DNA of 64,000 bases from assembly GCA_965248445.1 (NCBI GenBank), contig CBDFJG010000004.1, positions 1,792,001-1,856,000 on the forward strand. Direction: 5' to 3'. Each line of letters begins with the position of its first letter. The first letter of the stretch is position 1. Positions 44,410 to 62,331 of the stretch are shown piece by piece. This DNA comes from Planctomycetota bacterium. GTDB taxonomy: Bacteria > Planctomycetota > JAJSAM01 > JAJVHW01. Made by a program: the position numbers and the translations under genes. The notes beneath the pieces are model-generated. The model ran no database searches. It was not told where the DNA came from and saw only the letters and a list, made by a program, of their open reading frames with translations.

Positions 44410-44411
44410 CG

Positions 44412-46817
44412 TCAGTTCCTCAATGCCTTGCCGGTCTTCAGGATGTGCTCCATGCGCGCGAGCGTCTCGTCGTTGCCGCAGAGGCTCATGAACGCCTCGC
44501 GTTCGAGTTCGAGCAGATAGTCCTCGGAGACTCTCGACGACGCGCTCACCTCGCCGCCGCACAGCACCCACGCGAGCCTGTCGCCGAGCACCTTCTCGTA
44601 CGCGGTGATGAACCCGCCCAGCGCCATGTTGTGGAGGCCCGCGCGAATGGCGGCGAGACCGGGCTCCCCGACGACGCGGATGTCGGTGCGGGGCCGCGGG
44701 GCCTCGTAGCCGGCGACGTCGAGGGCCCTCACCCGCCGCTTCGCCTCGTGGATCAGCAGTTCGCCGTTGACGACAACCCCGTCCGTCGAGCGCAGGAAAC
44801 CGTAGTTCTGCGCCTCGACCGCGCTCGTCGCGACACGAGCCATGCCGACGGTCTCGAACACGCGCTGCACGTGTGGGAAGAGATCGATGTCGGCGCCACG
44901 GGGCAGCGACTCGTCGATGCGGCGGACCAGTTCCTTGCAGCCGCCGCCGGCCGGGATCACGCCGGCGCCGAGCTCAACCAGGCCGATGTACGTCTCCGCC
45001 GCAGCCACGACCGCGTCGCCGCCGAGCACGACCTCACACCCGCCGCCGAGCGTGAGCCCGCGTGGCGCCACGACCACCGGACGCTTGGCGAATCGCAGGC
45101 GGAAAGTCGCGTGCTGGAAGCGCTCGACCATCCACAGGACGTCGTCGTAGTTGTCGTCGTCGAGTTCGCTCAGGATCAGCAGGAGGTTCGCGCCCGCGCA
45201 GAAGTTCGCGGCGTCGTTGCCGACCACGAGACCACGCCAGCGCTCCTCCACCTCGTCCACCGACTTCTCGAGCATCTCGATGACGCCCGGTCCGATGGTG
45301 TTCATCTTCGTGTGGAACTCGAGGCACGCGACGTCGTCGCCGAGATCGATCAGCGTCGCGTCGGGCGATTCGAGGATCGTCTTGCCGGCGTCCTTCAGGT
45401 CCGCGAGCACGACGAAGTCGCTGTTGCGGGGTACCAGGGCCCCATCGCCCGAGGCGGCGTCGAAGAAGGACACTCGGCCCTGCTCGCGCTCGTAGAACGA
45501 CTCGCGCCCCGCGTCGAGCATCTGTTGCACGATCGGCGGCACGGAGTGCCCTTCGGCTGCCATCCGCTCGCACGTCTTGCGGACGCCGAGCGCGTCCCAC
45601 ACCTGGAACGGCCCGATCTCCCAGCCGAAACCCCAGCGCATCGCCCGGTCCACTTTCACGACGTCGTCGGCGATCTCGGGGATGCAGGAGGCGGCGTAGC
45701 GAAGTGTCGCTGAGATGTTTTCCCACAGGAACTCGCCGGCGCGGTCCTTCGCGAACACGAGCGTCTTCAGGCGCTCGGTCAGATCCTCCATGCCGCGGGC
45801 CATGCCGAGCGACGGGATGTTCACCTTGCCCTGTTCGACGTACCGGCCGTTCACCCAGTCGAACATCAGGATGACGCGCTCACCGTCCTTCTTCGACTTG
45901 CGATAGAAGCCCGCTCCCGTCTTCGCACCGAGCGCCCCGGAGTCGATCAGGCCGAGCATGAAGGGCGGCGGCACGAACAGCTCGCGGTGCGAATCGAACG
46001 GCAGGCGGTCGTACAGGTTCCTCGCGACGTGCGCGAGCGTATCCAGGCCGACGAGACCCACAGTGCGGAACGTGGCGCTCTTGGCCCGCCCCACCGCCTT
46101 TCCGGTCAGCTTGTCGATCTCCGCGACGGTGTAGCCCTTCTCCACCATCAGATGGATGGCGTGGAACACGCCGAAGACACCGATGCGGTTCGCGATGAAG
46201 TTGGGCGTGTCCTTGGCGTGCACGATTCCCTTGCCGAGCACGCGCTCGCCGAACTCGGTCATGAACGACAGCACCTCGTCCGACGTGTCCGGGCCACGCA
46301 CCAGCTCGAGCAGCTTCAGATACCGCGGTGGGTTGAAGAAGTGCGTCACGAGGAAGCGCGGGCGCAGTCCCTCGGGAAGCGCACCCGACAGCTCCTCCGC
46401 GGACAGCCCCGACGTGTTCGAGGAGAGGATGGCGTGCTCCGATACGTGCGGCGCGATCCGCTCGTAGAGCGACTTCTTGATGTCGAGGTTCTCGATGATC
46501 GCCTCGACGATCCAGTCGCAGTCCGCGAGCCGCGCGACGTCGTCGTCGAAGTTTCCGACGTCGACGAGCGCCGCCCCGCCGGGGGCGAAGAATGCGGCCG
46601 GCTTGGCGCGGGTGGCGGCCTTCAGCCCGGCGCGGGCGCGGGCGCTCGGGTCCGGGCCGTCCGACTTCAGGTCGAGCAGGAGCGTCGGGATACCGACGTT
46701 CGCGAGGTGCGCCGCGATGGCGGCCCCCATCACGCCGGAGCCGAGCACGGCTGCCCGTTCGACGCTCCGCACTCCTCCAGTCCCAGTTGACCCGGTGCCG
46801 GTCGTCGCCTCAGACAT
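44412..46817 (-). CDS. fadN: 3-hydroxyacyl-CoA dehydrogenase/enoyl-CoA hydratase (FadN-type)
   Basis: GSGVMG..IAAH.AN, SNTSG, HFFNPPRYLKLLE, FCAGANL, LGGGCE. Confidence 0.92.
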   Translation of the reverse strand: MSEATTGTGSTGTGGVRSVERAAVLGSGVMGAAIAAHLANVGIPTLLLDLKSDGPDPSARARAGLKAATRAKPAAFFAPGGAALVDVGNFDDDVARLADCDWIVEAIIENLDIKKSLYERIAPHVSEHAILSSNTSGLSAEELSGALPEGLRPRFLVTHFFNPPRYLKLLELVRGPDTSDEVLSFMTEFGERVLGKGIVHAKDTPNFIANRIGVFGVFHAIHLMVEKGYTVAEIDKLTGKAVGRAKSATFRTVGLVGLDTLAHVARNLYDRLPFDSHRELFVPPPFMLGLIDSGALGAKTGAGFYRKSKKDGERVILMFDWVNGRYVEQGKVNIPSLGMARGMEDLTERLKTLVFAKDRAGEFLWENISATLRYAASCIPEIADDVVKVDRAMRWGFGWEIGPFQVWDALGVRKTCERMAAEGHSVPPIVQQMLDAGRESFYEREQGRVSFFDAASGDGALVPRNSDFVVLADLKDAGKTILESPDATLIDLGDDVACLEFHTKMNTIGPGVIEMLEKSVDEVEERWRGLVVGNDAANFCAGANLLLILSELDDDNYDDVLWMVERFQHATFRLRFAKRPVVVAPRGLTLGGGCEVVLGGDAVVAAAETYIGLVELGAGVIPAGGGCKELVRRIDESLPRGADIDLFPHVQRVFETVGMARVATSAVEAQNYGFLRSTDGVVVNGELLIHEAKRRVRALDVAGYEAPRPRTDIRVVGEPGLAAIRAGLHNMALGGFITAYEKVLGDRLAWVLCGGEVSASSRVSEDYLLELEREAFMSLCGNDETLARMEHILKTGKALRN

Positions 46818-47485
46818 CACTTGCCCTCCGCCGCGAGGGCGCGCGTCAGCATGTCACCGACGGGCGCGACGTGTTGCATCAGATCGAGCCGCTTCTTGGC
46901 GCGCACCCAGCTCGTGACAGCCTCGTCGAGCCCCCCGAACACGACCTGGCGCGCGAGATGGACGTCGAGCGCAGCGTCGAACTCGCCGCACGACACGCCA
47001 CTCCGCACGACGCTCTCGATCACCTGGAAGTAGTCGAGCACCGTCTCGCGAATGCCCTCACGCAGCACCGGATCGGCGTCGCGCAGGTGGATCTGAAAGA
47101 CGGCCGCGAGCGCGCGGTCATCCTCGAAGAACCCGAAGTGCAACTCGACCAGGCGGCGCAGGCGAGCTGTGCCTGCGGCGGTCTCGGCGAGCGCGGGGCG
47201 GCAGCGCTCGATGTAGCCCCCGAGGTGTCGCTCCACCAGGCGGACGAGCAGGTCCTGCTTCCGCTTGACGTAGAGGTAGATCGTCCCAGTGGCGACGCCG
47301 GCGGCCGCCGCGACGTCGGCGATCGTGCTCCCGTGGTAGCCGCTCTTGGCGAACACATCCACGGCCGCGCGGAGGATGCGCCCCTCCTTGCCGTTCTTGG
47401 GAACTCCGTTCCCCTTCGCAGGGAGCGGAGCGGCCGAAGGCGCGGCGGCCTCGGGCTCGCCAGCAGGAACTGAATGAACATTCAT
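46817..47485 (-). CDS. TetR-family regulator (Bacillus FadR-like)
   Basis: HTH IADVAAAAGVATGTIYLY. First gene of the fad operon. Confidence 0.88.
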   Translation of the reverse strand: MNVHSVPAGEPEAAAPSAAPLPAKGNGVPKNGKEGRILRAAVDVFAKSGYHGSTIADVAAAAGVATGTIYLYVKRKQDLLVRLVERHLGGYIERCRPALAETAAGTARLRRLVELHFGFFEDDRALAAVFQIHLRDADPVLREGIRETVLDYFQVIESVVRSGVSCGEFDAALDVHLARQVVFGGLDEAVTSWVRAKKRLDLMQHVAPVGDMLTRALAAEGK

Positions 47486-47521
47486 TCAGTACAGTATGGG
47501 GCACGCCGGTGGCGACGTCAA
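47469..47521 (-). promoter_or_regulatory. sigma70-like promoter and FadR-box-like operator
   Basis: TTGACG-17-CATACT and palindrome ACTGAATGAACATTCATTCAGT (47469..47490). Confidence 0.8.
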
Positions 47522-48024
47522 GCAGGCTGGAGGCGGCGGCCGCCGTGAGTCCCGCGGGGCTCGCGCGGCTCGCGGTGCACCAGCCGGGTGACCGCAAAGA
47601 CGGCGCTCTGATAGACCGAGTCCGACTCGAATTCCGCCTGCGGCGCCCACACGAAGGCCGGGGGCGGCGTGTCACTCAGCCCGACGAGGGTCCCGGAGAA
47701 GAAGTAGCCGGTCTGGTCCCAAGCCGCCAGCCCATCCGGCTGCACGAACCACTCCCGGAGTGCCCCCACGAAGCGGAGGCCGGTCACGGAGGCGGCGGCC
47801 TCCTCGCGGACCTCGCGCACCGCAGCCTCCTCGGGCGTCTCGCCAGTTTCGATTCCGCCGCCGACGAGGTACAGGCCGCCGTGCAGCCCGCGTTCGCACG
47901 CCAGGCGGCCGTCGGCGTCGCGGGCGATCACGTACGCCGCGCGGCGGGGGCGGTAGACGGGTCCTCCACCCGACGCGCCGAAGACCAGCGGGTGCCAGAA
48001 CGCGCCGGAGAGCCGCCGTGGCAC
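47518..48024 (-). CDS. NUDIX hydrolase
   Basis: GGGIETGETPEEAAVREVREE Nudix box. Confidence 0.85.
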   Translation of the reverse strand: MPRRLSGAFWHPLVFGASGGGPVYRPRRAAYVIARDADGRLACERGLHGGLYLVGGGIETGETPEEAAVREVREEAAASVTGLRFVGALREWFVQPDGLAAWDQTGYFFSGTLVGLSDTPPPAFVWAPQAEFESDSVYQSAVFAVTRLVHREPREPRGTHGGRRLQPA

Positions 48025-48025
48025 T

Positions 48026-49726
48026 TCAGGACTCGCCCTTCTTCGCAATCTCCTCGTCGCGCAACGAACGGCGCAGGAGCTTCATCATCGAGGACTTCGG
48101 GAGGCTCTCGCGGAACTCGATCATCTTCGGGACCTTGTACGCAGCGAGCTGATCCTTGCAGTGCGCCATGACTTCCTCCGCGCTGCACGCCGTGTTCGGA
48201 TGCAGGACGATGTAGCTCTTCACGGTCTCCCCGCGCCGCTCGTCGGGAACGCCGATCGTACACGCCTCGAAGATCGCGGGGTGTGAGACCAGCACGCGGT
48301 CGATCTCGTCCGGGTAGATGTTGTAGCCGGACGCCAGGATCATGTCCTTCTTGCGGCCGACGATCTTGAAGTATCCGTCCTCGTCGATCTCCGCAAGGTC
48401 GCCCGTGTACATCCAGCCGTCGCGCAGTGCTTCGGCCGTCGCATCCGGCCGGCCCCAATACCCCGGCATGATCTGCGGGCCCGTGACGATCAACTCTCCG
48501 GGTTCGCCGACGCCCAACTCCGTGACGCCGTCTTCGGGAGACACGATCTTCGCGTCGGTGTTCGGCAGCGGGATGCCGATGGACCCCACCTTGCGCACTC
48601 CGTCCATCGGGTTGCAGTGAGTGCACGGAGAGCACTCCGTCATGCCGAAGCCCTCGACGATCTTGGCGCCGGTCAGCTTCTCGAACCTCTCGAGCACGTC
48701 CTTCGGCAGCGGGGCAGACCCCGAGACGCAGGCCTTCACCGACGAGACGTCCAGGTTCTCGATGCCCGGGTACTGGTTCATCGCGTTGTAGAGAGCGGGA
48801 ACGGCCGGGAGCATCGAGACGCGGTGCTTGGTCACGTTCTTGACCATCATCGGGATGTCCCGCGGATTTGGCATCACGACGATGGACGCGCCCGTCGAGA
48901 GCGGGAAGAGCATCGAGATCACGAACCCGAACACATGGAAGTAGGGCAGTGACGCGAGCGAGACTTCCTCTCCCGGATTGCACTTCGGGAGCCAAGCGAC
49001 GAGTTGCTGCACCTGGTACGACAGGTTCTTGTGCGTCAGCATGACGCCCTTGGCGGCACCGGTCGTTCCTCCGGTGTACTGGAGCAGCGCGAGGTCGTCT
49101 ATCGCCGGTTGATGCGTGTACCGCGTGGCTCCGGCCTCCGCAATCAGATCCTTGAACCCGTGCACGTTGCCACCGAGCGCGACCTTGGCGTGCAGTCCCG
49201 CGCGCTTGAGCTTGAGCGGCGCGAGCAGATTGAGTGGGAACCGTAGATAGTCGGGCACGTGCGTGATGACGTAGTGCTCGACCGGTACCTGCGAGCGCAG
49301 TGCCTTGATCGACTTCTCGTACAGCCAGCCGCCGGTGATGGCGACGTGCACCTTCGAGTCGTTCCACTGGTGCACGATCTCGCGCGGCACGTAGAGCGGG
49401 TTCGTCATGACCGCCTGCGCGCCGAGCGCGAGCGTCGCCATGGTCGCGATGACCGTCTGCGGCAGATTCGGCAGATGGATCGCGACGCGGGAGTCCCTCT
49501 GCACCCCCAAGGCGTGCAACGACGCCGCGAACGCGTCCACCATCTGGCCCAGTTCTCGATACGAGATGCGGAAGTTCAGGAAGATCAGCGCATCGCGGTC
49601 CGGAAAGGCGACGACCGATTGCCGGAAACGGTCGACGACCGTAGCGTCGTCGAAGTCGATCGAGTGGGGCACGCCCTCGTCGTAGTGCTTGAACCAGGGC
49701 CGGTCGCCGATCGCTGGGCTACTCAT
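48026..49726 (-). CDS. fadD: long-chain-fatty-acid--CoA ligase
   Basis: QYTGGTTG..KG, EGFGMTE, GWMYTGD, GRKKDMI..SG.NIYP. Confidence 0.93.
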   Translation of the reverse strand: MSSPAIGDRPWFKHYDEGVPHSIDFDDATVVDRFRQSVVAFPDRDALIFLNFRISYRELGQMVDAFAASLHALGVQRDSRVAIHLPNLPQTVIATMATLALGAQAVMTNPLYVPREIVHQWNDSKVHVAITGGWLYEKSIKALRSQVPVEHYVITHVPDYLRFPLNLLAPLKLKRAGLHAKVALGGNVHGFKDLIAEAGATRYTHQPAIDDLALLQYTGGTTGAAKGVMLTHKNLSYQVQQLVAWLPKCNPGEEVSLASLPYFHVFGFVISMLFPLSTGASIVVMPNPRDIPMMVKNVTKHRVSMLPAVPALYNAMNQYPGIENLDVSSVKACVSGSAPLPKDVLERFEKLTGAKIVEGFGMTECSPCTHCNPMDGVRKVGSIGIPLPNTDAKIVSPEDGVTELGVGEPGELIVTGPQIMPGYWGRPDATAEALRDGWMYTGDLAEIDEDGYFKIVGRKKDMILASGYNIYPDEIDRVLVSHPAIFEACTIGVPDERRGETVKSYIVLHPNTACSAEEVMAHCKDQLAAYKVPKMIEFRESLPKSSMMKLLRRSLRDEEIAKKGES

Positions 49727-49857
49727 CACGTTCACCTCGCGGCCCGGCCTCTCCCGTCCGGTCGGGGACCACGATAGCGACAGGATGGCGCCCTGCGCGA
49801 CTCGTGGTTGGCCCATTTCGGGAACACCGGCCCCGCGTGTGTACGCTGGGCGCTCCC

Positions 49858-50247
49858 ATGCGCCACGCCCTGCTGCTGCTCGCCGCCCTCTCCCTGGCTG
49901 CCTGCTCCCGGTCGCCGCCGCCGCCGCCGGGCCCGCCCGGCAAGACGGCGACGCTGATCGTCCGCAACGCAGCGCCGGCGGGCGACGTGGTGGTGATCAC
50001 CGCGAAGAAGGAGGGGCTCACGGACCTGAACCTCGAGGTCCCGGTCGCCCGGAGCGCGAATCAGGCGGCCGTCGCCGGCGCGATCTACTTCTTGATGCCC
50101 GCCGAATGGCAGCGCGCGAGCTACCTGGCGGGCGACGGCGTCGTGATCCCCGCGATCGAGGACGTTGCCGTCGACACGGGCGAGACCGGGCTGGAGATCT
50201 CGCTGACTGTGACGCCGCGCCCGCCTCCCGGCTACGAACGCGAGTAG
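49858..50247 (+). CDS. hypothetical lipoprotein
   Basis: MRHALLLLAALSLAAC lipobox and Pro linker. Confidence 0.7.
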   Translation: MRHALLLLAALSLAACSRSPPPPPGPPGKTATLIVRNAAPAGDVVVITAKKEGLTDLNLEVPVARSANQAAVAGAIYFLMPAEWQRASYLAGDGVVIPAIEDVAVDTGETGLEISLTVTPRPPPGYERE

Positions 50248-50276
50248 CACCCGCCTCGGCGCAGCCGCGAGTGCCA

Positions 50277-50519
50277 TCAGACTCCGTCGCGCCGGGCGAG
50301 CAGGTTGCGCGCTACCGACGTCATGATCGAGGCCACACCGACAAGCCCGAGCAGCGTGAGCGGCCAACCGCCGCCCAGAATCCAGCCGAGCACCAGCGCG
50401 ATGGCGAAAGCGAGCATGAGCAGCGAGGCGACGATCCAGAACCAGATGATCCGCGAGAGCGGGAGTCTGATGGGAGCCGTGGGCGGCGGGACGACCGACT
50501 CGTCGCGAGCCTCTTCCAT
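50277..50519 (-). CDS. small 2-TM membrane protein
   Basis: Abuts the peptidase stop and has two hydrophobic helices. Confidence 0.6.
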   Translation of the reverse strand: MEEARDESVVPPPTAPIRLPLSRIIWFWIVASLLMLAFAIALVLGWILGGGWPLTLLGLVGVASIMTSVARNLLARRDGV

Positions 50520-52685
50520 CTACGCCAGCGCATCTTCGAGGAAGGCGAGGATGCGCTCCTCCATGTAGATGCGATCGGCCTCGCCCCGGGGCATGTGACG
50601 CTCGTCGGGGAAGAGCAGGAGTTCGTACGGCTTGCGCGCACGGATCAGCGCGTTCACGAGGCGCGCCGTGTGCTGAAAGTGCACGTTCTCGTCGATGAGG
50701 CCGTGCACCAACAGGAGCTTGCCCCGCATCTGCTCGACGTGGTGCATCACGCTGCCCCGCTGGTAGCCGTCCGCGTTCTCCTGCGGCAGCCCCATGTAGC
50801 GCTCTGTGTAGCACGAGTCATAGCCGTCGTAGTGCGTGACGGGTGCTCCGGCGACGGCCGCCTTGAACACCTCTGGTGCGCGGGCGAGACACATGCACGA
50901 CATGTAGCCGCCGTAGCTCCAGCCATAGATCGCGACCCGATCGGGATCCGCGAGACCCTGGTCAACGCACCAGCGCACGCCGTCCACCTGATCCAGCACT
51001 TCGAGGTTGCCCATGTCGTGCTTGATCCAGCCCTCGAACGCGAGGCCGCGGCGGGCGGCGCCGCGGTTGTCGACGACGAGCACGAGATAACCCCGCCGGC
51101 GGAGAGCCTGTGCGCGCAGGTCCACCGTCACGTCCCATCCGTTCTTCACCCTCTGCGCGTGCGGACCGCCATACACGCTCACGATCAGTGGCCACGGACC
51201 TGCGCCCTGCGGCGGGCGGTAGAGAAGCGCGTCGAGCGGGATGCCGTCGCGATTCTCGATCGTGATCAGTTCGGGCGCCGTGAGCGCCATCTCTGTGACC
51301 CGCTCATCGGCAGCGTCGTGAAGCGTGCGCAGGAGGGACCCATCCGACAGGTCGCGCAAGTCGCACCGTACCGGACGGTCGCGCGCGTGGTGCCGGTCCA
51401 CGAACGTGTCGAATGCGGGCGAGACCGCCGTCATGTGCATGCCGTCGTCCGGCGTCAGACGAGTGACCTCGCCGTCGGCGAGCGGCACCCGGTAGAGATG
51501 GCACTCCGTCGCGCCGTCCTTCGTCGCCATGAAGTAGACGGCACCGCCTTCGTCCTCCTGCACGGCCTGCAGCGAGTCGACCATCCAGTCCCCGGAGGTC
51601 AGCCTGCGCACCAGTGAACCGTCGGCTGCCCTCAACTCCAGATGACGAAAACCCGTGCGTTCGGAGGCCCACAGGAAGCCGCCGGCAAGCTCGCTCTCCT
51701 CGGACTTCAGCGGCCGGAAGCAGCGGTGCAGGTTGATCCAGACGTCACTCGACTCGCGGAGCAGTTCGGTGGCCGCGCCGGTGGTGGTGTCGAACTGGAG
51801 CAGGCGCAACTCGGACTGGCGCCGGTCCATGACCTCCGCCGCGAGTCGCCCGTCCGGGAACCAATGGACGCGCGCTAGGTAGATGTCGAGGTCCGCACCG
51901 AGGTCCATCCACACCGGTTCGCCGCCCGCGGCGGGGACCACACCGAGTCGTACGTGGGCGTTCGGCGCTCCGGCGAACGGGTATCGGTGGTCCTCCTGTG
52001 CGGCGTCGCCGACGGCGTCCTTCCCCTGGTGCACGATGCGGTACGCCGGGATGTGCTTCTCGTCGACTTCGACGAATGCGATGTGCGACGAACTCGGTGA
52101 CCACCAGAATCCGCGCAGCCGCCCCATCTCCTCTTGCGCCACGAATTCCGCGAGCCCGTTGGTCACACCGCCCGCAGCAGCGCCGGTCGTGAGCGCTCGC
52201 GCGGAACCGCCCTCGGTGTGCACGACGTGCACTTCGCCACCGCGCACGAACGCGACGTGCTCGCCGTCGGGTGCGAACGTCGCGTCCATGGCGGTGCCTG
52301 CATCCGCAGAGACGAGTTCGCGCAGTTCCGCCCCACGCTCGTCGAGTAGGTACACACCACCTGCGATCGGCAGGAGGATACGGCTGCCGTCCTTGCTGAA
52401 CGCGTACGACGTCACGCCGATCGCGCGCTGGCGCAGCCGCTCGCGGCGGAGCTTCTCCTCGAGTGACAGGTCCGCCTCACCCGCGGCCGTCGGTGCCCGG
52501 GCCAGGACTTGTGTCTCCCCGCTCGCGACGTCGTGTCCGTGCAGCACCTGCGCCAGGTCGCCGTCCGGACTCGCCAGGAACGCGAGCGTCTCTCCGTCCT
52601 TTGCATACGCGTACGCAACCGGCGCCGACATCCCGGGACGCGGGAAGCGCGCGATCTGCTCGACGGGGATCTCGGGTGCGCTCAC
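50520..52685 (-). CDS. S9B dipeptidyl peptidase IV family
   Basis: VYGGP, GWSYGG, HGLIDENVH, PDERH catalytic triad and DPPIV N-terminal propeller. Confidence 0.93.
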   Translation of the reverse strand: MSAPEIPVEQIARFPRPGMSAPVAYAYAKDGETLAFLASPDGDLAQVLHGHDVASGETQVLARAPTAAGEADLSLEEKLRRERLRQRAIGVTSYAFSKDGSRILLPIAGGVYLLDERGAELRELVSADAGTAMDATFAPDGEHVAFVRGGEVHVVHTEGGSARALTTGAAAGGVTNGLAEFVAQEEMGRLRGFWWSPSSSHIAFVEVDEKHIPAYRIVHQGKDAVGDAAQEDHRYPFAGAPNAHVRLGVVPAAGGEPVWMDLGADLDIYLARVHWFPDGRLAAEVMDRRQSELRLLQFDTTTGAATELLRESSDVWINLHRCFRPLKSEESELAGGFLWASERTGFRHLELRAADGSLVRRLTSGDWMVDSLQAVQEDEGGAVYFMATKDGATECHLYRVPLADGEVTRLTPDDGMHMTAVSPAFDTFVDRHHARDRPVRCDLRDLSDGSLLRTLHDAADERVTEMALTAPELITIENRDGIPLDALLYRPPQGAGPWPLIVSVYGGPHAQRVKNGWDVTVDLRAQALRRRGYLVLVVDNRGAARRGLAFEGWIKHDMGNLEVLDQVDGVRWCVDQGLADPDRVAIYGWSYGGYMSCMCLARAPEVFKAAVAGAPVTHYDGYDSCYTERYMGLPQENADGYQRGSVMHHVEQMRGKLLLVHGLIDENVHFQHTARLVNALIRARKPYELLLFPDERHMPRGEADRIYMEERILAFLEDALA

Positions 52686-52755
52686 GGGGTGCCTCCGAGG
52701 CCGAGGCGCGGCGCGTCGTTACTCGCGTCAGTGACCGAGGCCGGCACGAACGGCA

Positions 52756-53157
52756 TCACACTCCGCCGAACGAGTACATCAGCGCGCCAGCGCCAAAACA
52801 TGCCGCGTTGAGCAGGAACACCACACCGGCTCCGATCAGGGTCACCTTCAAGAGCAGGTTGTCCTTCTTCTTCACCGCGTAGATCGCGAGCGGGATGACC
52901 GCGAGGAGCTGTGTTATCCCGATGAAGTACATCGTCGCTCCATGCAGTGGGATGAGAAGGAGTAGCGCCTGTGTCGCGGCCAGAACGGCGGCGAACGTGC
53001 CGATGCGCCCCCAGAGCGAAACCGGAGTCGCCGGACGACGCGGCAGGACCTCGTGCGGATCGTCTCCCGGCTTGCGCGGCGGAGGCGGCAGGGCTCCACG
53101 GTCGTCGACGTTCTCGAGTGGATCGTCCGGAGCGAACAGGTCGTCCCGCTCGCTCAC
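52756..53157 (-). CDS. 3-TM membrane protein
   Basis: GTGA overlap with the radical SAM stop. Three hydrophobic helices ending LLNAACFG. Confidence 0.65.
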   Translation of the reverse strand: MSERDDLFAPDDPLENVDDRGALPPPPRKPGDDPHEVLPRRPATPVSLWGRIGTFAAVLAATQALLLLIPLHGATMYFIGITQLLAVIPLAIYAVKKKDNLLLKVTLIGAGVVFLLNAACFGAGALMYSFGGV

Positions 53158-54574
53158 GCGATCGCCTCCTGCTCCCTACGCAGCGGAGCCAGCACGCGCT
53201 CCTCCAGATCGTCGCGGTAGAAGAGGTTGTACGTGTCGAACGGGATCAGCCGTCCGTCCACCGGATGCACGAAGTGGATGCAGCTCTTCTTGACGGAGCG
53301 CACGTCGAGGGCGTGTGCGTCCATGAACTGGACGATCAGCACACGAAACACGTTCTCGTAGGACAGGTTCGGCATCGCGGCGCGGGGCATGCAACAGAGC
53401 AAGTCCTTCAGGCTCTCAGCGCCACTCTCCGGCGAGTGCGCGGTCGAGAACGTCTTGAAGAGGCCCTCCTTCACGGCCTCGTCGTGCTCGAACACGATCG
53501 TGCTGCGAGCGCCGTCGAGTAACACACTCTGGTCGAGCAACCCCGTCAGCGGGATGACCTTGTCCTCGATCTTGATCGCGTACGCCATCGCCAGACAATC
53601 CGGGTGACACGGCACGGGGATGATGTCGGCCGGCGCGAAGACGTCGGTCTGCTCGAGAACGCGGGAGCGTACCTCGGTCAGCGTGAGGCGGTTCACGGCC
53701 GGGTCGTAGTTCTCGGCGCGCCCCGCGTGCTGCACGGGCTGGAGGGTGACTCCGCGAACGCACTTCCATTTGAGCGCGAAGTCGACGATCTCCCCGAGTT
53801 CGTCGTCGTTGACGCCGCGCATCACCGTCACGACGAGCGTGGTCGAGAGTCCGACGGCTTCGAGGTTCTCGAGCGCCTTCATGCGCACGTCGACAAGGTC
53901 CTCGCCACGAAGACGCTGGTGCACTTCGGCCCGCAGCGAATCCCACTGCAGGTAGATCTCGAAACCCGGCGCGTAGGCCGCCAGCCGCTCGGCGAACCCG
54001 GGGTCCTTCGCGATGCGCACGCCGTTCGTGTTGAGCATCAGGTGACGGATCGGCCGCTCCTTGGCCGCATCGAGGATCTCGAAGAACTGCGGGTGCACCG
54101 TCGGCTCGCCGCCGGAGATCTGCACGACGTCCGGCTCGCCTTCGTTGGCGACGACCGCGTCGAGCATCGCCTCGACCTCCTCGAGCGTGCGCGACTCGCT
54201 GCGCGCCCGCCCGCTGGACGCGTAGCAGATCGGGCAGTCGAGGTTGCAGCGGTCGCAGATCTCGATGATCGAGAGACAACTGTGCTGCTCGTGGTCGCTG
54301 CAGAGGCCGCAGTCGTAGGGACAGCCCCCTTGACCGGTGTGTTGAAGCGCACCGGCATCTCGGACGGCTTCAGGAACTCCTCGCGCGCCCGTCGGTAGTA
54401 GACAGCGTCGTCTGCGACGAGGACCTTCTCGAGTCCGTGGCGCGGGCAGCGCTTGTGCATGTAGACGCGGCCGTCCTGGATCACGATCTTGGCATCCACC
54501 CGCCGCAGGCACGTGGAGCAGACCGAGATCGTCAGGTCGTAGAACAGATACGGACGGACCCGCGCTTCACCCAT
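53154..54574 (-). CDS. Tes/GDGT-MAS (MJ0619)-like radical SAM protein with a 1-nt frameshift in a G5 run near 54327
   Basis: Joined frames give CSTC...KRCPRHG, NTPVK-GCPYDCGLC, CNLDCPIC, GGEPT, FMDAH.LDVR.VKKSCIH, RLIPFDTYN. Confidence 0.85.
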
Positions 54575-55313
54575 CGCGAGACTCTACCCCACGCACGAGC
54601 CGCGGTACGTCCCGTAGGTAGAACAGGAGTCCGAACACGCACGCCCACTGGATCGCCGTCAGTCCGAAGTGGTGCACGCCCGGCTTCAGGAAGTCGACTG
54701 CCAGCCGGAACGTCAGGTACGCGAACATGAACGCGCGGAATCGATCCCCCTCGCGCAAGCCGCGATACCGCAACAGCGCCAGCCCGAGCACCGCGGCGAA
54801 GACCATCTCGACGACTCGCACCGGATGCCGCGCGACGTCCTCACCCAGCACGAGTCCCCACCACGCACCGGTCGGCAGCCCGTGCGTCCCGTCCTCGATG
54901 CCCGCCGAAATGCACCCGAGCCGCCCGATGACGATGCCTACGCAGAGCGGAACGACGAACGCGTCCCCCGTCGAGCGCGTGACGCCGGAGAACCGTTTCC
55001 AGGTCTCGACCGAGATCAGCCCGCCGAGCAGGGCGCCGACGATCGTCTTACGCCCGACGATCGGCACCGGGCCCGCGAACATCCCGGCGAGCCCCTGTTC
55101 GTCGGCCAGCCAGCCGAGCAACCACGATCCGAACGCGGCCCCCACGATGGCCGCGGCGATGGACCCGAGGCGCGTGCCGAAGTCCAGCGGGTCCGCACCC
55201 TTACTGCGCGTGCGGCGGAACACCCAGAACCCGACCGCGTAGGCCGACGCCTCGAACAGCACGTGCGCACTGATCCCGATCGAACCGATCCGGAGGACGA
55301 GCGGGAACTCCAC
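54567..55313 (-). CDS. Lgt (prolipoprotein diacylglyceryl transferase)-family paralog
   Basis: IGRLGC, G.PT..WWG, RHP....E, Y..FR..VDFLK. Lacks the canonical HGG motif. Confidence 0.8.
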   Translation of the reverse strand: MEFPLVLRIGSIGISAHVLFEASAYAVGFWVFRRTRSKGADPLDFGTRLGSIAAAIVGAAFGSWLLGWLADEQGLAGMFAGPVPIVGRKTIVGALLGGLISVETWKRFSGVTRSTGDAFVVPLCVGIVIGRLGCISAGIEDGTHGLPTGAWWGLVLGEDVARHPVRVVEMVFAAVLGLALLRYRGLREGDRFRAFMFAYLTFRLAVDFLKPGVHHFGLTAIQWACVFGLLFYLRDVPRLVRGVESRDG

Positions 55314-55348
55314 CGGCCCAGGCTACGCAGGTGAGGAGTCCCGCGCGT

Positions 55349-55417
55349 TCTTCAGCCCGTCGCCCCCTCTTCAGCCCCGCAGGCCCCTCTTCAGCCCCGC
55401 AGCCTCTTCTTCAGCCC
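55349..55417. repeat. four direct repeats of TCTTCAGCCC
   Basis: Copies start at 55349, 55368, 55388 and 55408. Confidence 0.85.
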
Positions 55418-55461
55418 CACAGCTTGGGGTGCCGATGTCGAAGCGGAGCCCCTGCGCCACC

Positions 55462-56517
55462 ATGACACACGCCGTCAACTCCCCCTGGCCCTCAGCGCCC
55501 GGTCTGGTGCTGTCGGTGGACGTGCTCTCCGACGAGCCCGGCGGCCGGCGGCAGCGCCACACTACGGTGTCCTGCGGCACCGCGCTGCCGCGCGTGCAGC
55601 GGATCGCCGAGCGGTTCGGCGTGCGTCCGACGTACCTGGTGTCGTTCCAGGCCCTGGGCGAAGCGGAAGTCCGGGACGTGATCACCAACTACGCCCGCGC
55701 CGGCCGCTGCGAGATCGGCGCCCTGCTCGACCTGTCGACCAATCCGCCCTTCCTGCCGGGTGACGGTCACGACGGCGCAGTCCCATCGCAGCCCCCCACC
55801 GAGTTCGTGTCGCAGAAGCTCGTGATCCTGACGGACGTGCTGTGGCAGCGCACCGGAGTGCGGCCGGTGAGTCTGCGACTGCGCGGGCTCGGAGCCACCG
55901 GTGAGGTGCTGCGGGCGGCGGCGGAGTTCGGGTACGCGGTCGACGCGAGCATCCGCCCCGGCGAGTCGTACGTCGCGTCCGACGGGCCCGATCTTGTCGC
56001 CGCGCCGCGGCGTCCGTACCACCCCGCGATCCTCGATGCAGTACAGAGCGGCCAGGTGCCGCTCCTCGAGGCGCCGGTCTCGACGGTCAGTCCGGGCGCG
56101 ACCGACCGCCGTCTTCGAAAGCGTATCGGCCTGCGGTCGCTCACTGCGACGGGTCAGCCGATTTCACTCGATCCCACGGCGGCTCCAGTGGACCTCATGG
56201 TCGAGGCCGTCGACGCCGTGATCGCCGACGAGCAGCCGGTGATCCACTTCACGCTGCCGGCCCACGCGCTCTTCCCCGGTGCCAGCGGGCGGGCCGAGAC
56301 AGCTGATGAGGTGGATGCTCACCTTCGTGCGCTTGCCACGGTGCTCGGTCACACCGTCCGCGCCCGCAGCGCGATCGGGCGCACGCTCTGTCAACTCGCG
56401 TGGATCGACCCCGAGTGCCTACGCGGCGCGCCGCGCGAGCAGGACCTCAGCGACTCGCAGCGCAGCGGCGACGAGACCCTCGCCCGCATCTCGAGCGCCA
56501 TCGACGGCCTGCAGTAG
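55462..56517 (+). CDS. WalW-like polysaccharide deacetylase family protein (degenerate)
   Basis: LVLSVDV, GVRPTYLV, CEIGA, GVRPVS.R, GYAVDASI.P, LLEAPVS. Confidence 0.65.
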   Translation: MTHAVNSPWPSAPGLVLSVDVLSDEPGGRRQRHTTVSCGTALPRVQRIAERFGVRPTYLVSFQALGEAEVRDVITNYARAGRCEIGALLDLSTNPPFLPGDGHDGAVPSQPPTEFVSQKLVILTDVLWQRTGVRPVSLRLRGLGATGEVLRAAAEFGYAVDASIRPGESYVASDGPDLVAAPRRPYHPAILDAVQSGQVPLLEAPVSTVSPGATDRRLRKRIGLRSLTATGQPISLDPTAAPVDLMVEAVDAVIADEQPVIHFTLPAHALFPGASGRAETADEVDAHLRALATVLGHTVRARSAIGRTLCQLAWIDPECLRGAPREQDLSDSQRSGDETLARISSAIDGLQ

Positions 56518-56547
56518 CTCGCCCCCCACCGCGCGGCCGGCGAGCGG

Positions 56548-56985
56548 CTACTCGTCGCGGCTGTGCGCGCTCTCCAGGTCGATGTCGGCGTACAGTCCGC
56601 TGCCACCCACTCGTCCGTCGCGGCCGAGCGAGCGCAGCTCGAAGAGGCGATCTTCCTCGTCGGCGGCGTACACGAACGGGTGTCCCCACGCATCGGTGGG
56701 GACGGACGTAGAGTCCAAGTAGGCGTCAGGGCCGACCAACTCGTCCAGCCGAACCGGCAACTTCCTTCGCTCCAAACGGAACTGCCGGATGGCCATCTCC
56801 ACCTGAATCAGCTGCGTCTTCGTCACCTGCACGTTCGCCCGGTCCGTGTACGAACCGACGCTGCGACGCACCACGAATGCGAGCGTCGCGACCGCCCCCA
56901 CGACCAGCAGGATGCAGACGCCGAGGATCACGAACACCCGTCTGTGAGAACCGGAACCGTCCGGCTGTGTGCGTTCGTCGCTCAC
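56548..56985 (-). CDS. GspG-like type II secretion pseudopilin domain protein
   Basis: TM helix, PTDAWGHPFVY, LRSLGRDG..GG.G..ADI. Confidence 0.8.
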   Translation of the reverse strand: MSDERTQPDGSGSHRRVFVILGVCILLVVGAVATLAFVVRRSVGSYTDRANVQVTKTQLIQVEMAIRQFRLERRKLPVRLDELVGPDAYLDSTSVPTDAWGHPFVYAADEEDRLFELRSLGRDGRVGGSGLYADIDLESAHSRDE

Positions 56986-57087
56986 TGGTCCCCCTCTTCC
57001 CCACGCAGCCCCGCTTCCCCTTGCAGATGGTACAGCGCCGGAATCACCGTGCGGGAATCCCGGAATCGCCGCGCGGGAATCACAGCG

Positions 57088-57112
57088 CCCCGGACCGCAC
57101 GGCGATCCGGGG
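57088..57112 (-). terminator. hairpin downstream of the porin
   Basis: CCCCGGATCGC-CGT-GCGGTCCGGGG on the minus strand. No strong U tract. Confidence 0.45.
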
Positions 57113-57135
57113 GCTTGTTGATGTTGCGCGTGTGA

Positions 57136-58584
57136 CTAGAAGTCGATTGCGAAGCGCATCCCGAGGAGGTCGTAGTCGCCGAGATCGTCGACCTGACCCT
57201 TCGTGACGTTCAGCAGAACGCGCGTGTGCGGATTGAGGTACCAGGCCACACCCACCGTCCACTGGTCGATGTCGGGAGCCGCTCCGGCTCCACCGCTCGG
57301 GTTCCACTCGTCGTACCGCAACGCAACCTGGACCGCGCCGGTGCCGCCCCCGTCGCCGTAGTTCTTCTTCGGCGCCGTGCGTCCCCAGACGTTGTTCTTG
57401 CGGTCGTAGACGCGGCTCTCACCCGTGACGTAGTAGCCGAACGTCGCGTGCCATGCCTCGACCGTGGCGTCGCTCGGGCCGCCGTCGACATCGAAGTTCG
57501 CGCGGGCGAACTCGGTGTCCATGAAGAACGGGCCGTTCACGTACGCGGCTTCGACGTTGTAGAGCGTGCCGTCGTCGGACTCGACCCCGGGCGTCGGGCC
57601 CCGCGGCGTCCCTGTGGCACCGATCGTGCTGAAGCTGCCCGACGAGAGACGCTGGTTGCCGTGCGTGCCGAACGTGATGCTCTCGTCCGAGGGGTTGCGC
57701 AGGCTTCCGCCGACACCGAGGTGCACGAGGTGGTTGTCGTCGTCCGGGTTCTCCCAGGCAACGCCGGCGACGCGAGCGGTGTGGTTCCACTCGCCCTGGC
57801 TCGTGTTGCCACGATCGTCGCCGTACGAGTCGGAGTCGCGGAACGAACCGATGGCCCAGTTCCAGTTGCCGTCGAATGTGTTGCGCAGGCTGATGCCTGT
57901 GCTGCGATCCGGTAGGAGGTCGACGTCCATCCCGCGTTCCATGAACGTGATGAGGTTGTCGCTCGTGAGGTTCGTCATGCCGATCGGCTCGTAGTGGTGA
58001 CCGACGGTGAAGAACCCGATGCAGGGATGGTCGAGCGTCATGTAGACGTCCGTGAAGTCCGCGTCGCCGCCGGCGAAGTCGTACTCCGCCTTGAACCCCA
58101 CGTTGCCGTAGATCGTCCCGGCCATGAACAGGCGGGCACGGCGGAAGTAGGCGCCCGTGTCGAACTTCTCCTGGGTGACGGGCGGCGTGTCCTGCGCGCC
58201 CATGAAGCGCTCGATGGCGTTGTCCACGTCACCGCGGACGAAGTCGAGCTGCGTACGACCGCCGATCTTGAACTTGAAGTCGCCGTCTGCGGAGTCGGCT
58301 CGGAGGCCGCCCTTCCAGTACGTCGACATGCCGGTGTCGCCGGCGCTCAGGACGCGTTCCAGCTCGGCGATGCGCGAGACCAGCTCGCTCGATGCGCCGA
58401 CCTGAGACTTGGCTGTCAGCCGTTCGACCTGTGCCTCGAGTTCGAGCAGACGCTGCTCGAGCTGCGCCTCACGCTCGCTCGTTTCGTTCGCCAGGGCCGT
58501 CGAGCTGGTGAGGCAGAGCGCGAGGGCGCCCGCCGCGATTCCGCAAATCGCATGCGCTCTGAACCGCTTCGTTGTGGTGGTCAC
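57136..58584 (-). CDS. OprO/OprP-family phosphate-selective porin
   Basis: Signal peptide and coiled coil, KIGGRTQLD, FRRARL, ITFMER, YVTGESR.Y, WYLNPHTR, C-terminal F. Confidence 0.88.
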   Translation of the reverse strand: MTTTTKRFRAHAICGIAAGALALCLTSSTALANETSEREAQLEQRLLELEAQVERLTAKSQVGASSELVSRIAELERVLSAGDTGMSTYWKGGLRADSADGDFKFKIGGRTQLDFVRGDVDNAIERFMGAQDTPPVTQEKFDTGAYFRRARLFMAGTIYGNVGFKAEYDFAGGDADFTDVYMTLDHPCIGFFTVGHHYEPIGMTNLTSDNLITFMERGMDVDLLPDRSTGISLRNTFDGNWNWAIGSFRDSDSYGDDRGNTSQGEWNHTARVAGVAWENPDDDNHLVHLGVGGSLRNPSDESITFGTHGNQRLSSGSFSTIGATGTPRGPTPGVESDDGTLYNVEAAYVNGPFFMDTEFARANFDVDGGPSDATVEAWHATFGYYVTGESRVYDRKNNVWGRTAPKKNYGDGGGTGAVQVALRYDEWNPSGGAGAAPDIDQWTVGVAWYLNPHTRVLLNVTKGQVDDLGDYDLLGMRFAIDF

Positions 58585-58621
58585 TGCGTTCCTCCCAAGT
58601 GGCGCGCACCCTCGCCGTCTC

Positions 58622-59775
58622 GTAACCGTTCACCCCTTGACAGCGTGTGAGCCTCAGCGTGCGAGGGGCAGCGGGACCATGACGGGCGGGTCGGCGCCGG
58701 TGAGGTGCGCGGCGACCGAGTCGGCGAGGAAGTCGAAGACTTGGTCGCCACGGCGTCGCAGCGTGGCCGCGGCGGTCAACACGCGCTCGGCGAAGCGGAG
58801 TCCGCGAGCGGACTGGCTTCCGAAGGAGCCCTTGCGCCAGAGCACCGCTTTGCGGACCGCGCGCTCGGCGGCGTTGTTCGTCGGACTCACGTCCTGGGTC
58901 CGCGCATAGGTGAAGAGGGCGACCACGCGGGGGCGCAGATGGTTGGCCAGAGCCGAGTCGTCGTTCGCGATCAGTCGCTCGAGCCGTCCGCGCAGCACAG
59001 CGGCTTCGCCTTGCAGCCGGTCACGGTCGCCGTGCTCACCGAAGAGCCGGTAGCTGCGCATGACCGACTGCGCGATCATGACGCCCTTGTTGCCGAAGCG
59101 GCGATGTCCTCGCGGGCCTTCGGCCAGCGCACGGAAGGCGCGCTCGATGTGCGCCCAGCAGAGCTGGCGGCGGGCAAGTGGGTGTGACTCGTAGGCACCC
59201 ATCCGGTCGCTGATCACCGTGCCACCGAAGCGCCGCCCGATCAGCCGCCCTTTCGCCTTGGCACTGCGGCGGCGATCGATCCCGAAGGCTGTGGCGTGCT
59301 CGCTCTCCGCCGCCCACAGCCAGCACACCCGGCCCCGTTCCTTCCACGACGTCTCGTCCACGTTGGCTCGCAGCGACGTGCGGACTGCCCCGAGGGCTTC
59401 GAGGTACGACGAGTGCAGAGCGTCACTGAGCCGACGCTCACAGTCGCTGATCTTGCCCAGCGACATCTTCACACCGAAGATCTCACCGAGCAGCCGCTGC
59501 GTCTCCCGCACGCTCACGCGGTACACGCCGCGCAGCGCGCCGGCAAGTGTGGTCAGCCGCGGACCGAAGGCCCCGGTCGGCACGCCATCGGGCAGGACCG
59601 CCGTCGTGACCGCACGACAGCGCCGGCACCGCGCCTTGTGCAGCCGGTGCTCCCGCACCGTGACGAGCACGCGCGGGAGCACCGTCACCTGGTGCCGGTA
59701 CGGATCGCCGATGCCCTGCTCGAGATCGTCGTGTCCGCACGCGTCGCAGAGGTCGGGACGGTGGTCCTTGGTGAG
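58622..59775 (-). mobile_element. IS66-family (single-ORF type) element, 5'-truncated
   Basis: Terminal GTAACCGTTCAC at 58622. No matching other end was found. Confidence 0.75.
58654..59775 (-). pseudogene. IS66 transposase lacking its N-terminus
   Basis: CDACG...CRRC zinc finger, NVDETSW, SDR..AY, QLCWAHI.R, TNNAAERAVR..V.WRK.SFG.QS. In-frame stop near 59812. Confidence 0.85.
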
Positions 59776-59862
59776 GCGCGAGCACTCTCTGCGAGCCTCC
59801 CGTCTCCTACTCTAGGAATCGGCCGGGACGGGGTTGTTCAACACGCTGCTAGAGACTAGTGT

Positions 59863-60492
59863 TCACCGCGGCGCGGCTGGAAGCGCACGAGGTTTCGCAT
59901 GCCGGACCAACAACGCCTCGATCAGCCGACCGTTGTTGAATTGCAGCCGGTATTCGCTTGAGATCGACTTGCCTTCGACGTTCCAGTAGGTCCACCACTC
60001 GGACGTGCCGCGGGCGGCAACTTCGTCCGGCGTGCCAAAGGCGTCCAGTGACATGATCTCGGATGCGAATAGCCACCGCGACCGGAGATCCGCGTTCGTC
60101 TTCCACTCGGCGAGCGGTTCGAGGGCAGATACGCTCTTGGACGACATCGGCTCCGTGTCGTCGCGCGACACATGAGATGTCGTCACGCGGCTGGGTTCTC
60201 CCAACGCCGTCGGACGTCCCGTTCGGTGCCTCGCGGCGTCCGCGAGCGTCCTGGCGTTCAGCGTCTCACGAATATCACGGCGCGTTGCCGCCAAGCCTCG
60301 CTCGAGCACGCCCTCGACACGTTCAAGATGGGCGCGAGTCATGCGCATCTCCTGAGTGATTGCTCGGAGCGCGTCCGTGTCTCTGTCGGGCAGCGAGTCC
60401 AACGCCTCGCCCGTGAAGACGAGCGTGAGTACGACGCCCGCGAGCAGACAGACAGTGCCGGCTGCGGCAATCGGCAGTACGGTCTTTCCCAT
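59863..60492 (-). CDS. membrane-anchored hypothetical protein
   Basis: ATG after GGGGGAG, N-terminal TM, coiled coil, FGTPDEV...W.Y...LQFNNGRL. Confidence 0.6.
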   Translation of the reverse strand: MGKTVLPIAAAGTVCLLAGVVLTLVFTGEALDSLPDRDTDALRAITQEMRMTRAHLERVEGVLERGLAATRRDIRETLNARTLADAARHRTGRPTALGEPSRVTTSHVSRDDTEPMSSKSVSALEPLAEWKTNADLRSRWLFASEIMSLDAFGTPDEVAARGTSEWWTYWNVEGKSISSEYRLQFNNGRLIEALLVRHAKPRALPAAPR

Positions 60493-60662: not shown

Positions 60663-62331
60663 CCCGAATCGTTCACCAGCCGGGAATCTGAGCGGGCCGT
60701 CGTCTGTCTAAGTGCTCGTACTCGCTAGTACTTGCACCGACAGGAGCGCCGGCCCGATGACGACAGACTGTAGCCCGCAGGGGACCCTCTTCGCGGGCAT
60801 CTGTGGACGCACCGCGGTGACGCGCTTCGACGCCGGTACCGTGACGAGCGACGGGGGCGTGCTGCTGCTCGAGCGGACCGATCGTCGCATCGATCTGCTC
60901 TCGCGGTTTGCGCGCTGCTTCGGGGACCACCGGGACCCGCGTCGGGTCGAGCACACGGTCGGCCAGATGCTGCGTCAGCGGGTCTTCGGGCTGTGCGCGG
61001 GCTACGAGGATCTGGTGGACCACGACCATGTCGGCAAGGACCCGCTGTTTGCCGCGGCGTGCGGCAAGCGCGAGGGTGCTCTGGCCACGCACCCGACGCT
61101 CTCGCGGCTCGAGACCACGCAGCTCGGCGCCACGGCACAGACGCGCTACGCCAAGATCGAGATGGACCAGGAGCGCGTGGACAGCGTGCTCAGCGACGTC
61201 TTCTGCGAGGCCATGGGGCCGGAGGATCCGGGCCTGCTCGTGCTGGACCTGGACCACTCCGACGTGCGGCTGCACGGCCGGCAGGAGGGCCGCTTCTTCC
61301 ACGGCTACTACGGGCACTACTGCTACCTGCCGCTGTACGTCTTCTGCGGCGAGCACCTCTTGCTCGCTCGGCTCCAGACCGCTGACAGAGATCCCGCGCG
61401 CGGAGTCGTGGACGAGCTCCGTGCGCTGGTCTTACGTCTGCGGCGCCGCTGGCCCCGGGCCAAGGTGCTCGTGCGCGCAGACTCGGGCTTTTGCCGCGAG
61501 GAGCTGATGGCCTGGTGCGAGGCCGCCGGCCACTTCTACCTGCTGGGCATGGCGCGCAATGAGCGCCTTGAGCGACACGTCGAAGACGCGCTCGATGAGG
61601 CCGCAGCCCGTGCCGTGCAGACCGGCCGAGCAGCCCGGGTCTTTCGCGACTTTGCCTGGACCACGCTGGGGAGCTGGAGCCAGAGGCGTCGCGTGGTCGC
61701 CAAGGCCGAGCACCTGCCGGGCGGCAAGCGCAATCCCCGCTTCGTGGTGACCAATCTGCCGCCTCGTAGCTGGAGCAGCAAGCGTCTCTACGAGCAGCTC
61801 TACTGCGCCCGGGGCGAGGCGGAGAATCGCATCAAGGAGCAGCAGCTCGAGCTCTTCGGCACCCGTCTGTCGGTGCACACGATGCAGGGCAACGCCGTGC
61901 GGATGGCCATGTCGGCCATGGCCTACGTCCTGACCTGTGCGCTGCGACGCATCGGTCTCGCCGGCACCGAGATGGCGCGTGCGCAAGCCGGCACGATCCG
62001 CCTGCGGCTGCTCAAGATCGGCGCGCTCGTGCGGATCACGACGCGCCGGATCTGGGTCTCGATGTCCTCGTCGTGGCCCTGGCAGCACGTCTTCGAGCGC
62101 TGCGCGCAACGACTGCTGGCATCCCCGAAGCCGACCTGACGTCCCGCCGCGCCGTCCGCCACACCACCGCCCGGCCTACGGTCTGCCCACACCGCAGAAT
62201 CCGCGCCGTTTCGGCCGCTCACTCGCGTTGCCCTTGTGGCAACGACGACAGCATCCGCCCTCGCCTGGCCAAGATCTGACCCTGTGGACTCCGAAAGCAC
62301 CGTCATCGCGACGTCTCGTGAACAGATGCGG
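60663..62331 (+). mobile_element. IS1380-family insertion sequence, copy 2, with CTAG TSD
   Basis: CTAG at 60659..60662 and 62332..62335. Same IRs as copy 1. Confidence 0.92.
60757..62139 (+). CDS. IS1380-family DDE transposase
   Basis: Matches the copy 1 protein except ERTD for ERVD. Confidence 0.95.
   Translation: MTTDCSPQGTLFAGICGRTAVTRFDAGTVTSDGGVLLLERTDRRIDLLSRFARCFGDHRDPRRVEHTVGQMLRQRVFGLCAGYEDLVDHDHVGKDPLFAAACGKREGALATHPTLSRLETTQLGATAQTRYAKIEMDQERVDSVLSDVFCEAMGPEDPGLLVLDLDHSDVRLHGRQEGRFFHGYYGHYCYLPLYVFCGEHLLLARLQTADRDPARGVVDELRALVLRLRRRWPRAKVLVRADSGFCREELMAWCEAAGHFYLLGMARNERLERHVEDALDEAAARAVQTGRAARVFRDFAWTTLGSWSQRRRVVAKAEHLPGGKRNPRFVVTNLPPRSWSSKRLYEQLYCARGEAENRIKEQQLELFGTRLSVHTMQGNAVRMAMSAMAYVLTCALRRIGLAGTEMARAQAGTIRLRLLKIGALVRITTRRIWVSMSSSWPWQHVFERCAQRLLASPKPT

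Follow-up and report, generated by a model that had tools for sequence, protein, structure and literature searches.

An Lgt-fold paralog encoded with a Tes-fold radical SAM enzyme and a small membrane protein: a candidate bacterial protein lipidation module, probably inactive in one Planctomycetota genome

A divergent paralog of Lgt and a radical SAM enzyme with the fold of the tetraether synthase Tes/GDGT-MAS are encoded side by side in bacteria, and the linkage between both genes is far beyond chance. The best reading of this module, which also includes a small membrane protein, is that it represents a variant among protein lipidation systems. It is predicted to attach a lipid to one cysteine of the small protein once that lipid has been modified by the radical SAM enzyme, a function to which we assign a probability of about 0.4. 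A role of the module as a tetraether-lipid synthase is not supported. The analysis started from a 64,000-nucleotide stretch of a Planctomycetota genome (hereafter, the window, to which all positions refer), whose own copy is probably dead.

In the window, the three genes lie on the minus strand. The Lgt-like gene overlaps the start of the radical SAM gene by 8 nt, and the stop of the latter overlaps the small membrane gene by 4 nt, in agreement with the overlapping stop and start codons reported in the original prediction. The radical SAM gene as a whole covers 54574-53154 and is split into two parts by a frameshift, so that the features are as follows:

54567..55313, minus strand: Lgt-fold paralog, 248 aa (PF01790, 44 bits; Lgt-like fold model)
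54330..54574, minus strand: radical SAM gene, N-terminal part, rubredoxin-like CxxC..CxxH domain (PF23545, 71 bits)
54325..54329, minus strand: frameshift site, a five-base run with one base fewer than in intact relatives
53154..54329, minus strand: radical SAM gene, C-terminal part, 391 aa (PF04055, 103 bits; column counts)
52756..53157, minus strand: small membrane protein, 133 aa, three predicted helices, the putative acceptor (neighbour statistics)

The C-terminal part of the radical SAM gene carries the CPYDCGLC..H cluster, the CxxxCxxC core, and an altered C-terminal domain. Four of its cysteines (C241, C312, C313, and C350) are conserved in its clade, and its sole solved relative is 7TOL (E 1e-55). 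Every motif on which the original prediction had been built was recovered: CSTC..CPRH, CPYDCGLC, CxxxCxxC, and FMDA..KSCIH..IPFD in the radical SAM gene, and KTIVGALLGG, GRLGC, and RHP in its partner. An Rfam scan of window positions 50000-60000 gave zero matches, and a search for a sigma-70-like promoter found none. Upstream of the Lgt-like gene, short imperfect repeats of ~20 bases occupy positions 55350-55420, with one additional repeat copy behind 55363 in the contigs of the sequencing runs, and a divergent ORF of 362 aa (55429-56517, plus strand) has no Pfam or NCBIfam match above cut-off. On the other side, a DPP-IV/S9 peptidase gene (50520-52685, minus strand) begins 70 bases past the small gene on the same strand; it is absent among the first downstream genes listed for relatives. 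Two transposase-like ORFs, which we take to be IS66-like (58654-59688, minus strand) and IS1380-like (60712-62139, plus strand), lie less than 7 kb from the module, and the genes at 43213-49816 (minus strand) presumably form a fatty-acid breakdown set consisting of a thiolase, a 3-hydroxyacyl-CoA dehydrogenase, a TetR-like regulator, and an acyl-CoA ligase.

The radical SAM gene measures 1421 nt, i.e., a 473-codon frame minus one base. Its PF23545 and PF04055 parts occupy different frames, with the switch at 54325-54329. The N-terminal part shares 65-73% identity with intact relatives over their residues 4-81, and its frame continues to a stop at 54038, coding there for unrelated sequence. The original prediction had taken this gene as intact; its motifs are indeed there, but the single reading frame is not. 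The frameshift is likely real, and the local copy of the module is probably inactive because of it. Contigs from all four Logan runs (depth 3.5-17.5) show zero differences from the window across the site, albeit these runs come from one sample with an unrecorded library type, possibly the source of the assembly. Relatives argue in the same direction. Of 122 stored proteins, 119 have the motif, with W (111), Y (7), or H (1) at this position and never G, so that a longer run that lost a G would be an unexpected history. A sequencing or assembly error that left the local copy intact is an unlikely explanation, which concerns the local copy alone and not the function of the module. In its favor, the site sits in a five-base run, both neighbouring genes are intact, and two to three other frame switches exist among the 119 orthologue-like matches from relatives in this assembly. 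This control detected six switches, two of them representing the radical SAM gene (sense and antisense), two representing one other site, and two representing further sites, one with low identity. The other frame switches in conserved genes of the assembly map to G000:C3:942262 and C3:1449710. Programmed frameshifting was considered and dropped, given that the gene is uninterrupted in relatives, which encode an aromatic residue at this position; to our knowledge, the five-base run matches no slippery motif. No second close copy of the radical SAM gene exists elsewhere in the genome, and the enzyme gene is also interrupted in the clade loci L030, L055, and L159.

The pairing of both enzymes was followed through 143 loci, a set from which own-genome loci, Lgt-only loci, duplicates, and one unpublished genome were left out. 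In the clade of the window's radical SAM enzyme, an Lgt-like gene is present in 81 of 98 loci, and in 70 of the 76 whose flanks reach 1.2 kb or more on both sides. Among other Tes-like proteins, it accompanies only one of 45 (L095), and none of the 32 with full flanks; in all these counts, loci are kin rather than independent. The gene neighbourhood expected to be conserved by the original prediction was thus found to be so. Named loci holding the pair span nine NCBI phyla, and intact copies of the module occur, judging by record titles, in the cultured organisms Tumebacillus flagellatus and Niallia oryzisoli. Across 301 genomes of the organism's own phylum, the enzyme is found in 33, a strong Lgt-like match in 35 (with a profile partly built from those same genomes), and both in 30, with enzyme and paralog within ~1 kb of each other in 29 of these 30. 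The seven further Lgt-like matches inspected (five strong, two weaker) all adjoin a more distant, related radical SAM gene, and six of those seven loci hold small Cys-bearing membrane ORFs. Four of five other genomes without the neighbour in the locus have the paralog elsewhere in the genome. The five genomes where the paralog is unlinked from the enzyme count against the best explanation. The pairwise identities of the Lgt-like and radical SAM proteins correlate (r 0.70, 69 pairs), which kinship alone could produce. Fusions or longer forms of the Lgt paralog were not found among 8000 candidates, a weak piece of evidence, and no fusions occur in the analysed loci, where two apparent long ORFs lie in another frame.

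The radical SAM enzymes of this clade share their architecture with Tes/GDGT-MAS (MJ0619; 7TOL, 7TOM; NF045702), including the whole fold, the rubredoxin CxxC..CxxH, the N-terminal 3Cys-1His cluster, and the CxxxCxxC core. The model of the intact relative L143, 72% identical to the C-terminal part in the window, adopts the GDGT-MAS fold along its whole length (Z 45.5, rmsd 2.7, and 409 residues aligned with 7TOM (VIA); Foldseek TM 0.78), which bears out at the fold level the Tes-like layout that had been proposed from motifs. The ligands of the rubredoxin, the N-terminal cluster, and the radical SAM core are present in 86-87 of 87 clade members. Nevertheless, the clade differs from Tes/GDGT-MAS in several respects. 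On the Tes model NF045702, the window's C-terminal part scores 241 bits and three intact clade members 246-297, never reaching the cut-off of 450, although bacterial proteins above this cut-off were found in 23 of 121 genomes. The phylogeny, through which a relationship to Tes was to be judged, sets the clade and the Tes-type proteins on opposite sides of a long branch (SH-aLRT 100), in a tree rooted on the Tes-type group with bacterial over-cut-off proteins standing in for archaeal Tes and no archaeal sequence included. The clade also holds an additional conserved CC pair, and it is encoded with an Lgt paralog. In fact, its top-scoring family model is that of TrsS (NF045646), a family that occurs with a DVU_1556-family methyltransferase and with which the clade shares the N-terminal domains. 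Its scores (273 bits for the window's C-terminal part and 300-337 for the three intact members) also stay below the cut-off of 490, and its neighbours differ from those of TrsS save in one subclade. The higher scores on TrsS than on Tes imply that a lipid substrate is not assured. TrsS appears in PMC13188914 as a radical SAM (seleno)protein, in a table row that states no function.

Further differences from Tes lie in the C-terminal domain. In GDGT-MAS, a C-terminal cluster bound by three cysteines and Met439 (PMC9433317, PMC13459092) holds the first radical as a carbon-sulfur intermediate (PMC9433317). All 22 bacterial Tes-type proteins (those above the Tes cut-off) share the cysteines of the HPxC, RC, and PFC motifs, the Met, and the equivalent of Tyr459. 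In the clade, the RC and PFC positions are S/T/A and D/E in 87 of 87 members, which extends to the whole clade the altered cysteine pattern (KSCIH, IPFD) first noticed in the window. The HPxC cysteine is kept in 20 of 87 members, the window's included, and the Met439 equivalent in 45 of 87, while that of Tyr459 is substituted throughout. The HPxC, RC, and PFC cysteines would be the ligands of the C-terminal cluster, and the clade would thus lack two of the three. It has instead its own set of conserved cysteines, namely C322 and C431 (87/87) and C393 and C394 (85/87) in L143 numbering. The lipid-pocket segment between PxP and FMD is about 35 residues shorter than in Tes-type proteins (94-97 vs 129-140 residues); in the L143 model, residues 374-399 of the pocket region have a pLDDT below 50. 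Both points weigh against the lipidation reading.

At seven loci (L213, L214, L215, L220, L221, and also L222 and L223), Lgt-like genes adjoin a sister group of radical SAM enzymes. The Tes-type C-terminal cysteines (PLPCAHPNC, KCCxH, and PFC) are kept in the first five of them, and small Cys-bearing membrane genes occur at six of the seven. If tails are coupled on a lipid bound to protein, this sister clade is where one would search first. Three window-clade enzymes (L050:3314-6529, L216:3698-6126, and L218:371-3857) have no Lgt-like neighbour and are followed by DUF547, with a DVU_1556-like methyltransferase too in L050 and L218. These three nested members have exchanged the Lgt paralog for DUF547, which counts against any lipid-only view of the clade.

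The Lgt-fold paralog of the window is related to Lgt by fold and by its PF01790 score of 44 bits (cut-off 24.9). Its structure model (pLDDT 94) has the E. coli Lgt structure 5AZB as its sole significant fold match (E 1.8e-6, TM 0.59). On the Lgt equivalog models, among them TIGR00544, it scores only 15-16 bits (cut-offs 334-558). In E. coli Lgt, His103 is the proposed base, Asn146 is essential, and Arg143, Glu202, Tyr235, and Arg239 bind the PG head group (PMC8689077). Residues were compared by aligning 71 paralogs with two canonical Lgts, the E. coli numbering being mapped by motif. A His at the position of His103 is found in none of the 71 paralogs, which have Val, Leu, Ile, Ala, or Thr there (Val92 in the window protein), while both canonical controls retain it; the absence of the catalytic HGG motif from this Lgt-like partner, read initially from a single sequence, is hence general. 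The Asn146 equivalent is Cys in 71 of 71 (Cys134 in the window, codon 54912-54914), Glu151 is not conserved, and an invariant ExxK, absent from Lgt, is present (E103/K106 in the window). By contrast, the head-group residues are kept, with Arg143 in 71, Glu202 in 64 (and Asp in 6 more), Tyr235 in 70, and Arg239 in 70 of the paralogs; the window protein retains them as R131, E169, Y199, and R203. Since both residues essential in E. coli Lgt, His103 and Asn146, are missing, the paralog may transfer nothing. A canonical Lgt (L081) is encoded elsewhere in the same genome, together with a second divergent Lgt paralog (L082:1441-2370, G000:C2; PF01790, 137 bits) in which WWGGF replaces HGG and WIGSY replaces RxGN.

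The third gene encodes a protein with a basic loop followed by a last helix that ends in Cys120 (codon 52798-52800) and a 13-residue tail. It matches no family in Pfam or NCBIfam, has one close homolog, and lies nearest to Atlas clusters without names (best 0.91); a weak profile found no further copy in its own genome. Such small proteins are hypervariable and often encoded in tandem. When the first small membrane ORF downstream of the enzyme is taken regardless of Cys content, a hydrophobic helix followed by a Cys is seen in 35 of 39, and three of the other four carry a Cys near the end. As background, the window's genome shows this pattern in 37 of its 156 small membrane ORFs, and control loci show it in one of 40. 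In a set of 47 small proteins, where the invariance of the Cys is partly circular because they were selected for it, this residue lies 13-31 residues past the last K/R, and a tail of 4-17 follows it. Its place is close to the C-terminus, past the last helix, although in several proteobacterial loci it follows the first helix rather than the last. Only one of the 47 has a canonical lipobox [LVI][ASTVI][GAS]C, as defined in PMC12462473. The geometry around the Cys resembles that of a lipoprotein signal peptide, and the charge pattern (K/R density of 0.179 before the helix and 0.002 inside it) suggests that the acceptor Cys faces the outer side of the membrane, as in those peptides. The NCBIfam family of lipo-invert tails (NF058595, cut-off 37 bits) was also considered and rejected, because it comprises tails of large Acidobacteria proteins; one of the 47 small proteins matches it at E 0.008, and none in the own genome exceeds the cut-off. 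The large NF058595 proteins at L180 and L185 (G041) end in a basic patch, a helix, and an internal Cys, which represents a similar internal signal-peptide layout in an unrelated family. No paper on these tails was found in the literature.

In the preferred lipidation mechanism, the folds, residue changes, Cys motif, linkage, and frameshift are observed, whereas the substrate, product, and binding are predicted. The cytoplasmic radical SAM enzyme would take a phospholipid chain into its GDGT-MAS-like pocket and modify it through hydrogen abstraction, but would not join tails to each other as Tes does. The Lgt paralog would then bind the altered lipid through its retained head-group residues and transfer its diacylglyceryl moiety to the small protein, namely to the Cys with which the last helix ends on the outer side. 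As the His base is missing, the invariant Cys134 may stand in for it. An acceptor without a standard lipobox would be ignored by the housekeeping Lgt, which would explain the need for a dedicated paralog. Within the original prediction, the proposal of a modified lipid anchor on a dedicated acceptor is the part that fits best. A further-reaching version, which looks rather doubtful, is that of a widespread second protein-lipidation route, where a His-less Lgt with a catalytic Cys and a Tes-fold enzyme would join lipid and protein through a new kind of covalent bond at an internal membrane Cys, for example, a radical-made thioether or a cross-linked membrane-spanning lipid anchor.

Other mechanisms have to be weighed against it. 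The radical SAM enzyme might modify the small protein directly, in the manner of a maturase—e.g., by forming a thioether between the Cys and a lipid or peptide carbon—with the paralog acting as a non-catalytic membrane scaffold. This would agree with the loss of the catalytic His and Asn from the paralog, with the hypervariable and frequently tandem small proteins, and with a clade that lacks two putative cluster ligands while keeping C322, C393, C394, and C431; moreover, GDGT-MAS already makes a carbon-sulfur intermediate (PMC9433317). It appears fairly improbable, as the positive-inside pattern would place the Cys at the outer face, away from a cytoplasmic enzyme, and the residues around it are not conserved like a core peptide. 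Quite improbable, too, is a thiol relay or metal(loid) unit, in which the cysteines of the small protein and the paralog would carry electrons, sulfur, or a small adduct from one side of the membrane to the other for a radical reaction other than lipid tailoring. The higher TrsS scores of the three intact clade members, the invariant Cys of the paralog, and the subclade that moved to DUF547 and DVU_1556-like methyltransferase neighbours would all suit a relay, but each membrane protein has one conserved Cys and no CxxC pair, and both the residues for the PG head group and the signal-peptide-like geometry are still there.

Very improbable is a function as a bacterial Tes, in which the enzyme would couple the tails of free lipids to give membrane-spanning or macrocyclic products and the paralog would supply or move these lipids. 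The whole-fold match, the nearly complete set of rubredoxin, N-terminal cluster, and core ligands, and the Tes-like C-terminal cysteines at five of seven sister loci beside Lgt paralogs speak for this possibility, as does the proposal that bacterial Tes homologs synthesize brGDGTs (PMC8941075). Against it stand scores below a cut-off that other bacterial proteins do reach, the separate branch, and the loss of the RC and PFC cysteines and the Tyr459 equivalent; it also leaves the acceptor-like small protein unexplained, and the known bacterial membrane-spanning lipid synthase is Mss (PMC13159169), to which tail coupling in bacteria is assigned (PMC13159169, PMC13274423). Cross-linking of tails by Tes chemistry, the other half of the original prediction, is therefore not upheld, also in view of the missing putative cluster cysteines and the shorter pocket region.

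With regard to described systems, lipidation by this module would resemble that of the DAG-RiPPs (PMC13056109), in which radical or oxidative tailoring of a small protein is combined with lipidation of a Cys. The DAG-RiPPs use the housekeeping Lgt, an N-terminal signal peptide, and MNIO enzymes (PMC13056109), while the module has a dedicated paralog, an internal or C-terminal Cys outside a lipobox, and a Tes-fold enzyme. A dedicated enzyme beside a non-canonical lipobox-like acceptor is also part of the non-canonical lipidation proposed for the Skillet-1 lipocone (PMC12419801), although its fold is unrelated, its acceptor is Ser, and the account of that proposal in PMC12419801 mentions no radical SAM partner. 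A literature search across the main text of open-access papers found no paper describing the pairing of an Lgt paralog with a radical SAM enzyme, and a 2026 review of lipid-modifying radical SAM enzymes never mentions Lgt. What is new here is the probably dead copy, the sister clade with Tes-type cysteines, and the subclade with changed partners.

Because of its frameshift, the window copy is a poor experimental target. The module nevertheless provides a directly testable three-gene hypothesis for non-canonical lipidation chemistry. Its meaning for the enzyme family is broader, since branched tetraether lipids serve as climate proxies and Tes homologs in bacteria are tallied as their possible producers: a large clade without the inferred catalytic site, in a different system, means that such counts of Tes homologs need to be split.
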